A stretch of 64,000 nucleotides of DNA from Octopus vulgaris (taxonomy: Eukaryota), in the NCBI GenBank assembly GCA_951406725.2, contig OX597821.1, positions 88,908,001 through 88,972,000 of the forward strand, given 5' to 3'. Both the position numbers and the translations under genes were made by a program. Numbering within the stretch: position 1 is the first letter of the stretch; the number at the start of each line of letters is the position of its first letter. Of the stretch, positions 556 through 57,382 are shown piece by piece. The notes beneath the pieces are model-generated. The model was given only the letters and a program-made list of their open reading frames with translations. It did not search any database and was not told the DNA's origin.

Positions 556-861
<306 letters not shown>

Positions 862-900
862 GGGTGGCTTGTTAGTAATTTTCCAACCGAAGGATTAAAG

Positions 901-1300
901 TATATATGTCACTAAAGTGACTAGGCCCCGGTCACCACTAGTATTGCTAGAAATAAGAGACAAAACACAACTATAACCATGATAAGTACTATCTTAATAA
1001 CTGACAAAGAAGGCAAGCTCCCTCAACGTAGAGCGTAGCCAGATCATCAGTGATTTCGCATTTACATTAATGTTCTTCAGTGGCTCGTATCGGCGCCTAG
1101 GGTTAAACTCAACACGTTTTGTCAGTTTGTAAGACGAGCGCAGAAATCATACGCTGTTCACATAAATGTCGGGTGATGAGGGAGTTTGCCTTCGTTGTCA
1201 GTCATTAAGATACTGCTTATCGTGGCTATGAGTTGTTTTGACTCGTATTTCTAGCAATACTGGTACTGATTAGCACCCTTAGTCGCTTTAGTGACGTATA
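901..1300 (-). mobile_element. Fold-back (long inverted repeat) element carrying a hammerhead ribozyme
   Basis: Arm 901-1025 is an imperfect reverse complement of arm 1177-1300 (roughly 80% by eye). Both ends are in TA runs. The spacer holds an HHR on the minus strand. Confidence 0.85.
1037..1085 (-). ncRNA. Type I hammerhead ribozyme motif
   Basis: Minus strand: AGCCA-CUGAAGA-ACAUU(AAUGUA)AAUGC-GAAA-UCA(CUGA)UGA-UC-UGGCU. Stem I 5 bp, stem II 4 bp, stem III 4 bp, AUC triplet. The only defect is A.C instead of G-C at 10.1/11.1. Confidence 0.8.
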
Positions 1301-1343
1301 TATACATATATACACAAATACCTACTAACTAACTACCTACTTA

Positions 1344-50966: not shown

Positions 50967-51301
50967 GAGAAGCAATGTTTATCGCCACTCCGATATGGCT
51001 GCCCCGTTGGAACAGACATTACTACCGTTTTTAACTCCAGGGGTAATTTCCTCCGGCTGGTTACCGATGCAACCACTGAGGATAGGCACAATAGCTCGAA
51101 ACCTTATGTTTTGGTGGTCCTGTCGCCTTCGCTTGAAGATGGTAGAGGTTCGCTCCTCTCTCCTCCACTTGCAATATATATATTGGAGGCAGATTGCATC
51201 TGAATAACCAGCTGGAGAAGACTCCTCCTGGAGTTAAAAACAATGGTGACGTTGGTTCCTACGGCACAGCTATATCGAAGTGATGATAATCATTATTTCT
51301 C
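50967..51301 (+). mobile_element. Second fold-back element with a hammerhead-like motif in the spacer
   Basis: Arm ~50967-51072 is an imperfect reverse complement of ~51192-51301 (e.g. gtttttaactccagg / cctggagttaaaaac; ttatcgccactccgatatggctg / cagctatatcgaagtgatgataa). Confidence 0.8.
51072..51115 (+). ncRNA. Degenerate type I hammerhead motif
   Basis: ACCA-CUGAGGA-UAGGC(ACAAUA)GCUC-GAA-ACC(UUAU)GUU-U-UGGU. Core intact and stem I 4 bp; stem II closing pair and one stem III pair are mismatched. Confidence 0.55.
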
Positions 51302-55999: not shown

Positions 56000-57052
56000 A
56001 CCACTGAAAAGCAGAATGTCTTCTTTAGGTTCTGTGTTCAAACACGATTGAGGTTAGCTTTGCCTTTCAAGTTTTCGGGGACGATAAATCAAAGTGCCAG
56101 TCAAGTTATGTGGTTGCTGTAATGCACATAATTCCTTCTAAAACTATTGTCCTTCTGCCAAAATTTGTAGGCGTTATAACTAATATCATTGACACACTAC
56201 CAATGCCTTCAATGAAGGATCCACAACCGCCACAACCGCCACCACTAAAACCATCACCACCACCACCGCCACAAACAACAACAACGAAACACCAACTGTA
56301 ACAGTATTATCTTCATAACTGAGACCACTACAACCATTTTTACTAGAATTCTTATCGAGCCAATATTTTCACGACATCACCAAGGTGACCCCCACAACCA
56401 CCTAACATGGTCATTCACCCTGCTAAGAGAGCAGCAAATCTTCCCCAAATCATAACTTACGGTCTTACTATGAATACTTTGGGTAATGACATTGTATAAG
56501 TAGCAGCTTGTGATATGACATGAGAGTCAAGGGTGGAAACATTTTGATTATACGTCTACCGAGTCAGGGCTTACCTGGGGGCTAAAAAGTTACAACATGT
56601 TTTTAGATATCACCATAACAATTGATAAAGTACATGCGAATTGTATTGCTCCTCACATATTGACAAGAGGCATTGCAGGTCAAATGGACTTTTTATATCA
56701 GGTGCATTCTCTTAAGCAGTAACGTTTATATGTATCACTGCGTAATATGCAGCTTCCCGGATATAGCAGGTTGCATATGACAACACTCGTGCAAAATCCA
56801 TATAAGTGAGTATATTTATGCATGTCAAGATGTCTATAGTCCCATTTCAATAACATATACATGCTTGAACACGTACAGAAGCATTAATTCAGTGTAAGAG
56901 AGAGAGGATGGAGAGAGAGAAAGAAAGAGAGAGAGAGTGAGAGAGAGAGAGAGATGTCTGTGTTGGTATATCTTTATGTAACCTACAAAAGAAGATAAAT
57001 AAACAGAGTAAAATTAACAATTTATCCGTAGATTGAAAAAGACGACCAGCTG

Positions 57053-57093
57053 CCTTAATCGATTTTCGATACTTATTAGTTCCTCATCAGAGG
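57053..57093 (-). ncRNA. Minimal type I hammerhead ribozyme in a Penelope pLTR-like fragment (~56955-57202)
   Basis: Minus strand: CCU-CUGAUGA-GGAACU(AAUA)AGUAUC-GAA-AAUCGAUU-A-AGG. Fully canonical core with G10.1-C11.1 and palindromic helix III. TATATAAA lies about 50 nt upstream; the insert sits between (GA)n and (TA)n. Confidence 0.8.
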
Positions 57094-57382
57094 TGTCTAC
57101 ATCAGTTTGCCCAATCCCATAGAAACAAATATCCAATCTGTTTATATATGCAATAAAATCAAGTACCAACAATAAACTGGAGCTTCTAATTTTCACACAC
57201 TGTATATATATATATGTATATATATATATAAGAAAAAAAAATCTATCAGAAAGGAACTCTATCTCTCTTAAAAAAATATCATTTGATAAGCATAACAAAT
57301 GCGCAACCGGTAAAAAGAACTTTCACCTAATTAAATACACTCTCCCCTACTTAAATTATTTTGTCAGCATTTTCTTCATTTC

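Follow-up and report, generated by a model that had tools for sequence, protein, structure and literature searches.

Animal non-LTR retrozymes (Cervera and de la Pena 2020, PMC7229834; Li, Clavereau and Pollet 2026, bioRxiv 10.64898/2026.07.22.740005; here and below, published work is cited for the accessible portions of its text) are low-GC, non-coding units of 170-400 nt with a type I hammerhead ribozyme, which exist as tandem and as dispersed monomeric copies, co-occur with Penelope-like elements (PLEs) and have the option of acting as dimers via a palindromic helix III, a route of cleavage known for animal hammerheads (PMC4209133, PMC7229834). They have already been proposed to be non-autonomous PLE derivatives (bioRxiv 10.64898/2026.07.22.740005; PMC8969392), a link to the PLE enzyme that has so far been based on co-occurrence and sequence similarity. 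Insertions of EN+ PLEs show 5' truncation, partial tandems, an inverted 5'-truncated copy, a bias towards AT-rich or microsatellite targets and a tail of 30-40 bp that is frequently confined to one end (Craig et al. 2021, PMC8557442; Arkhipova et al. 2013, PMC3846280). Purified PAc, the protein of Poseidon from Anolis, nicks and extends both strands of AT-rich targets in vitro, initiating reverse transcription at two internal sites, one on either side of the tail and both downstream of the hammerhead cut (Frangieh et al. 2024, PMC11167929).

Here we analyse an element at 850-1303 of a window of Octopus vulgaris DNA (the whole stretch under study, 64 kb) that combines traits of all three systems. 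We read it, with a probability of roughly 85%, as a decayed copy of a hammerhead retrozyme, ~340 nt long and non-autonomous, that was likely inserted into a TA repeat by a PLE reverse transcriptase/endonuclease and whose arms are likely two separate cDNAs joined head to head. Its family shares with animal non-LTR retrozymes each of the features listed above and differs from them in consisting mostly of truncated and fold-back copies, with no long arrays seen, and in a longer helix III (4 bp plus a palindromic loop, 11-12 nt in total). With EN+ PLE insertions it has in common the truncation, the partial tandems, the inverted copy, the one-end tail and the target bias, but it lacks an RT/GIY-YIG ORF, its tail measures 50 bp and its insert is a permuted small unit. 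It resembles Poseidon PAc in the two putative tail-bracketing starts downstream of the hammerhead cut and in its AT-rich targets, and nicking and extension of both strands would apply here as well; PAc, however, is autonomous and starts in an AC-rich stem-loop inside its ORF, whereas the ends of the window family are TA-rich and non-coding.

Results

Anatomy of the locus

The preliminary description of this DNA reported ~125-bp inverted arms around a ~150-bp spacer, and we recover them at 901-1025 and 1177-1302, 81% identical across 128 columns and ~150 bp apart. The left arm does not, however, mark the boundary of the element, since homology to the family runs ~50 bp further, to 850; the tail that this adds, a feature described for PLEs (PMC8557442, PMC3846280, PMC11167929), had been overlooked. 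The element comprises the following parts, where u1 is the first base after the predicted hammerhead cut and the fixed ends are defined below:

767-857, no strand assigned: (TA)n microsatellite, adjoining the long end and likely the insertion target
850-1168, minus strand: forward piece, 5'-truncated, running from u208 to u334, over the cut site and on through u1-u193; 265/317 aligned bases agree with the subfamily A consensus
850-899, minus strand: one-sided ~50-bp tail, u144-u193, between the two fixed 3' ends
1166-1168, no strand assigned: head-to-head junction, a 3-bp overlap spanned by a contig of organism B
1166-1303, plus strand: inverted piece, 5'-truncated, u6-u143; 121/138 agree with the subfamily A consensus

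The arms are the sequence common to both pieces, forward and inverted. In this copy they are nested, with the short arm contained in the long one, and the inverted piece stops at the "short" fixed end inside a TA-rich run. The minus strand of the 400-nt fold-back has a folding energy of -173.6 kcal/mol (z = -15.3), equalled by 0 of 100 shuffles. Locus contigs cross the junction with one difference in a second sample from this organism and three in organism B. No second family copy was found inside the 64-kb window; a further fragment (L151, at G000 C8:88982770) lies ~11 kb past its end.

A tandem unit and its subfamilies

Searching the 2.8-Gb genome at the DNA level with the window element gave 1483 candidates, of which 40 were scored; among these 40, the closest other copy is 78% identical. 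An alignment of 61 fragments centred on the ribozyme, drawn from 51 distinct loci, resolves a head-to-tail repeat with a unit of 336 nt. From 119 ribozyme copies at 125 loci we distinguish at least five subfamilies, A, B, C, D and E, with units of 334, 336, 343, 348 and 339 nt. Set beside the defining traits of retrozymes, these are tandem units of 334-348 nt with a GC content of 39-43% (retrozymes lie below 45-50%), one type I hammerhead each and no coding capacity: the longest ATG ORF measures 14-49 codons, with no ORF above 49 codons and no ORF start region in the unit. The family fits non-LTR retrozymes in the length and GC content of its unit, in the type of its ribozyme and in having no ORF, and the earlier statement that it matched no described kind is not supported.

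Copy number is skewed towards the 3' end. A 31-mer at u70-100, near the 3' end, has 798 matches with at most two mismatches, compared with 39 for a 31-mer placed in the ribozyme of the A/B/E type and 0 for reversed controls. At 10-14% divergence this suggests, as a rough estimate, ~2,000-4,700 copies of the 3' part against ~100-230 of the ribozyme, the latter count missing subfamilies C and D; fragments in the genome probably number thousands. Identity of the copies to their consensus has a median of ~88% and a maximum of 94%, which marks the family as old. Segments exceed one unit in 64 of 281 cases (the longest being 802 and 743 nt) and two units in two cases; ribozyme pairs in direct tandem occur at 4 of 179 loci, among which no long tandem arrays were found. 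Contigs from runs that we guess to be RNA map mainly to the high-copy 3' part and are uninformative on ends, strand and circles.

On contig C11 (12.75-12.83 Mb), one fold-back insertion is repeated several times within ~80 kb, in both orientations (L128, L132, L135 and L137); these are local segmental or inverted duplications, and the copies have G12A in common. Subfamily D (for example L130:1583-1661) carries a 13-nt insertion in loop II that makes an extra hairpin.

The hammerhead and its predicted mode of cleavage

The ribozyme occupies part of the forward piece:

1037-1085, minus strand: type I hammerhead, with helix I (1085-1081 with 1041-1037), CUGAAGA (1080-1074), helix II (1073-1069 with 1062-1058), GAAA (1057-1054) and a predicted cut at 1042/1041
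1043-1054, minus strand: helix III region, a 12-nt stretch that is self-complementary in the family and damaged by one change in the window copy
1073, minus strand: A at position 10.1 (G in the family), locus-specific and apparently common to organism B

This is the minus-strand parse first put forward, and we find it as claimed, including its single A.C defect: helix III spans 1054-1043, AUC precedes the predicted cut at 1042/1041, and A10.1 at 1073 faces C11.1 at 1058, so that a standard pair is broken. The A is present in both locus contig sets after depth subtraction, paralogous contigs having G, and is a decay mutation of this locus. A cleaving window copy, as the preliminary description envisaged, is not supported, given the A10.1-C11.1 mismatch and the damaged palindrome. 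The hammerhead fold is absent from the minimum free energy structure of the copy's 400 nt and from that of the isolated motif (z = -0.13 and -1.75), and Rfam hammerhead models find no match in 900-1310 up to E = 10. An Rfam scan of the whole window shows no hammerhead among the 150 of 186 matches listed, the miRNA matches being driven by microsatellites. Evidence for the ribozyme comes instead from covariation in the family.

At the family level a type I hammerhead is genuine and, judged from sequence, predicted to self-cleave. The preliminary description proposed checking for a G at position 1073 in other copies and for covarying stems, and both are borne out. Outside subfamily C, 78 of 89 copies have G at position 10.1, and the 10.1-11.1 pair is A-U in 30 of 30 subfamily C copies and G-C elsewhere in the family. 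Changes on both sides of a pair occur at I.3 (C-G/U-A), II.1 (G-C/A-U) and II.2 (C-G/G-C), and also at III.5; proximal helix positions are paired in 93-112 of 112-116 copies, helix I is open, and a bulge and a distal helix I are present. The covariation score is reached by 0 of 500 shuffles and slid controls are far lower, for 11 hand-picked rows whose kinship is ignored. Across the five subfamily consensuses the core is invariant at 11/11 positions, as against 48/88 other positions (Fisher p = 0.003). The cleavage triplet is AUC or AUA, the latter in subfamily C, and a small sixth cluster, D2 (6 rows, duplicated loci), has G12A. Within subfamilies, by comparison, change is nearly even (core 7.4%, stems 8.0%, other positions 11.0%, CpG ~21%), which indicates that selection acted on source elements rather than on genomic copies. 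With core and stems intact in 14 of 119 copies and the core decaying at close to the rate of the remainder (7.4% versus 11.0%), an active source is not evident.

Helix III had been described as bearing a real loop, in contrast to dimer-type motifs, a distinction that is not supported, since the "loop" is itself a covarying palindrome. One of its two inner pairs is C-G in 42, G-C in 18, U-G in 16 and U-A in 16 of 115 copies, and the other is U-G in 45 and C-G in 35 of 98. In folding calculations, isolated helix III motifs of 11-12 nt form no hairpin but pair with themselves as duplexes at -10 to -19.5 kcal/mol (the subfamily A form at -14.4 kcal/mol, the window copy only at -5.6), and in tandem dimers of A, C, D and E the double hammerhead beats two single ones by 10-16 kcal/mol. 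The active monomer fold costs 0.2 kcal/mol in an A circle and 4-14 kcal/mol in other subfamilies. These models, together with the conserved palindrome of 11-12 nt, favour a predicted cleavage as dimers, although monomers may also cleave through the fold accessible in subfamily A, to which the window copy belongs.

A separate minimal type I hammerhead, with an 8-nt palindrome as helix III, lies at 57040-57095 on the minus strand of the window, and differs from those of the retrozyme family in degree, not in kind. At 51070-51125 on the plus strand there is a further core resembling that of a hammerhead, CUGAGGA ... GAAA, whose helices I and III are uncertain.

Fixed 3' ends and variable junctions

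Insertion patterns were examined in a set of 179 loci that omits duplicates (L025, L030, L034-039, L041, L047, L051, L062, L063, L085, L086, L095, L120, L138 and L139), the segmental duplicates L132 and L137, and L149 and L191. Head-to-head fold-backs occur at 66 of these loci; when their inner junctions are binned at 5 nt, 65 are different, and tail-to-tail joins number three. With so few loci folding back, and almost every junction different, the arms appear as a by-product of insertion; the mobile unit is the ~340-nt monomer and not, as first thought, a fold-back or rod of fixed form.

The 3' ends, by comparison, recur. In a ribozyme-blind sample of 84 loci, drawn from the listed part of the 798 31-mer matches, 50 of 124 segments have their 3' end at u190-199 (the long end) and 36 of 124 at u135-149 (the short end). 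A purine-pyrimidine dinucleotide run follows 139 of 192 fixed ends (window background 28%), and (TA)3 or longer follows 68 of 192 (background 5%); target-site duplications are unreadable, as the ends sit in runs of TA or of another dinucleotide. Where a fold-back has both ends at fixed sites (29 cases), 25 pair a long with a short end, two are short plus short and two long plus long (p = 5e-5). In the other 37 of 66, one end or both fall outside the two sites, in many cases probably owing to decay or nested insertion. Arm pairs are nested in 11 of the 25 long-plus-short fold-backs and non-nested in 14, in 12 of the latter by more than 20 nt.

Upstream, the pieces stop at variable points. Of 92 segments in the ribozyme-blind sample, 37 have their stop at u1-40, a rate of ~0.015 per nt, compared with 0.002-0.007 in the 120-nt stretch before the cut and 0.005-0.008 for u41-70 (p = 2e-6 and 0.002 by a crude test); the contrast is slightly greater without L149 and L191, both of which span the ribozyme. 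There is no spike of 5' ends at the cut site itself, u1-6 accounting for 1 of 124 segments in this sample and 6 of 157 in the other. The excess at u1-40 could equally reflect trimmed run-off from a cleaved end or stalling on a long helix I.

Penelope-like machinery in the genome

GIY-YIG loci are abundant (6136 candidates, 150 scored), and intact 781-aa frames with RT and GIY-YIG, that is, EN+ PLEs, exist, with a C-X4-C-X2-C linker, the motif given for Neptune and Nematis (PMC8557442). The flanks of the family copies hold no GIY-YIG domain among 114 open frames from 125 loci, and the sequence they have in common consists of various other repeats, without a partner; the unit shows no significant common sequence with 30 GIY-YIG loci. 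EN+ PLE machinery is thus present in the genome, with no partner matched to the unit. An RT fragment beside L114, considered as a partner, was rejected because it reads as an RTE-type LINE. LINE fragments at L114:216-1275 and L015:401-964 have an RTE-like reading and a PHD-type zinc finger in the C-terminal region of the RT. L114 also holds a palindromic duplication (L114:1270-2153), in which both long pieces start exactly at u1, the predicted cut, and are joined to an inverted tail piece.

Discussion

Combining the alignment of dispersed copies with fold predictions and the distribution of ends, we outline how a decayed retrozyme copy could have arisen by way of a PLE enzyme. Transcription of a tandem source locus would yield multimers in which a pair of hammerheads, predicted to join via the palindromic helix III, would excise a monomer that may then circularise. 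A PLE protein would nick AT-rich DNA on both strands, and each nicked end would prime reverse transcription at one internal site, u144 or u194. The products would be the pieces that are seen in the genome: these are 5'-truncated at variable points, can pass the cut site and exceed one unit, and lie joined back to back, the 50-bp tail being present on a single side. The copies have since drifted ~12% from consensus, and the window copy has lost its G10.1. We entertain more tentatively, at a little short of an even chance, that the family preserves the full retrozyme cycle in fossil form, with dimeric cutting in vivo followed by PLE twin priming on linear or circular monomers at two fixed sites, one per strand of a single break. 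Two observations suggest dimeric cutting in vivo: compensatory changes have maintained the palindrome, and cDNA stops are crowded in the 40 nt downstream of the cut. If this is true, one twin-priming event would explain both the PLE tail and the inverted pLTR.

Small, non-coding elements with inverted arms and TA-rich flanks are familiar as MITEs derived from Tc1/mariner transposons, which target TA. A MITE that captured a ribozyme would account for the ~125-bp arms, the TA-rich ends, the small size and the strong hairpin of the window element, yet 113 of 179 loci lack a fold-back, 65 of the 66 that have one differ in their inner junction, the two ends are not alike, length is variable, and copy number drops from the 3' end as in retroposition. 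With polar 5' truncation, a permuted tandem unit, variable junctions and neither fixed terminal inverted repeats nor uniform length, we reject this reading as very improbable. Unlikely, though to a much smaller extent, is a fold-back produced by snap-back self-priming of a single cDNA of the same element, an idea akin to the self-priming discussed for PLEs (PMC3846280). The window copy itself, nested and with a 3-bp overlap, would suit it, as would the nested 11 of 25 arm pairs and the few junctions that are symmetric palindromes. In the 14 non-nested pairs, however, and in particular the 12 offset by more than 20 nt, neither arm could have templated the other, which excludes copying of one arm from the other and indicates two priming events, and self-priming leaves the fixed second stop site unexplained.

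A somewhat less probable alternative still is that the unit is the pseudo-LTR (pLTR) of an autonomous PLE and its copies are strongly 5'-truncated ends of that element. The 5' truncation gradient, the inverted copies and the one-sided tail are PLE hallmarks, and vertebrate retrozymes are homologous to pLTRs (bioRxiv 10.64898/2026.07.22.740005). Long copies, on the other hand, continue into further unit sequence, up to ~2.4 units, rather than into a coding body; the 114 flanking open frames from 125 loci lack a GIY-YIG match, their single RVT_1 match being a different LINE; and the unit neither resembles the 30 GIY-YIG loci nor contains an ORF start region. We therefore favour a non-LTR retrozyme, old and likely PLE-mobilised, that to judge from the literature found is likely not described before. 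The earlier assignment to a PLE-linked or retrozyme-like mobile element survives in its non-coding nature, its hammerhead and its PLE-style insertion, and is given up in the fixed fold-back or rod form.

As an element, this is an ordinary animal retrozyme family, old and largely dead. A non-coding retrozyme with a complete PLE insertion footprint is nonetheless evidence for the link between retrozymes and the PLE enzyme, and the long/short rule together with the non-nested arms makes testable predictions of how PLEs generate inverted repeats and tails. Neither two fixed ends nor inverted pieces were found in the accessible portions of PMC7229834 and bioRxiv 10.64898/2026.07.22.740005, and we found no octopus retrozyme and no PLE twin priming in the literature, of which subscription papers, supplements or Repbase/Dfam may hold either, or the family itself. 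Retrozyme fold-backs resemble MITEs, which calls for caution in repeat annotation.

A young PLE family in the same genome (L233:106-3787, L234:387-3784 and L235:81-3781) has an intact 781-aa RT and GIY-YIG frame and a tandemly repeated 3' region downstream of it; a simple scan of these three stretches gave no canonical hammerhead. Upstream lies a second long frame (359-479 aa), which overlaps the main frame in L234 and L235; to our knowledge, PLEs have been described as single-ORF elements.
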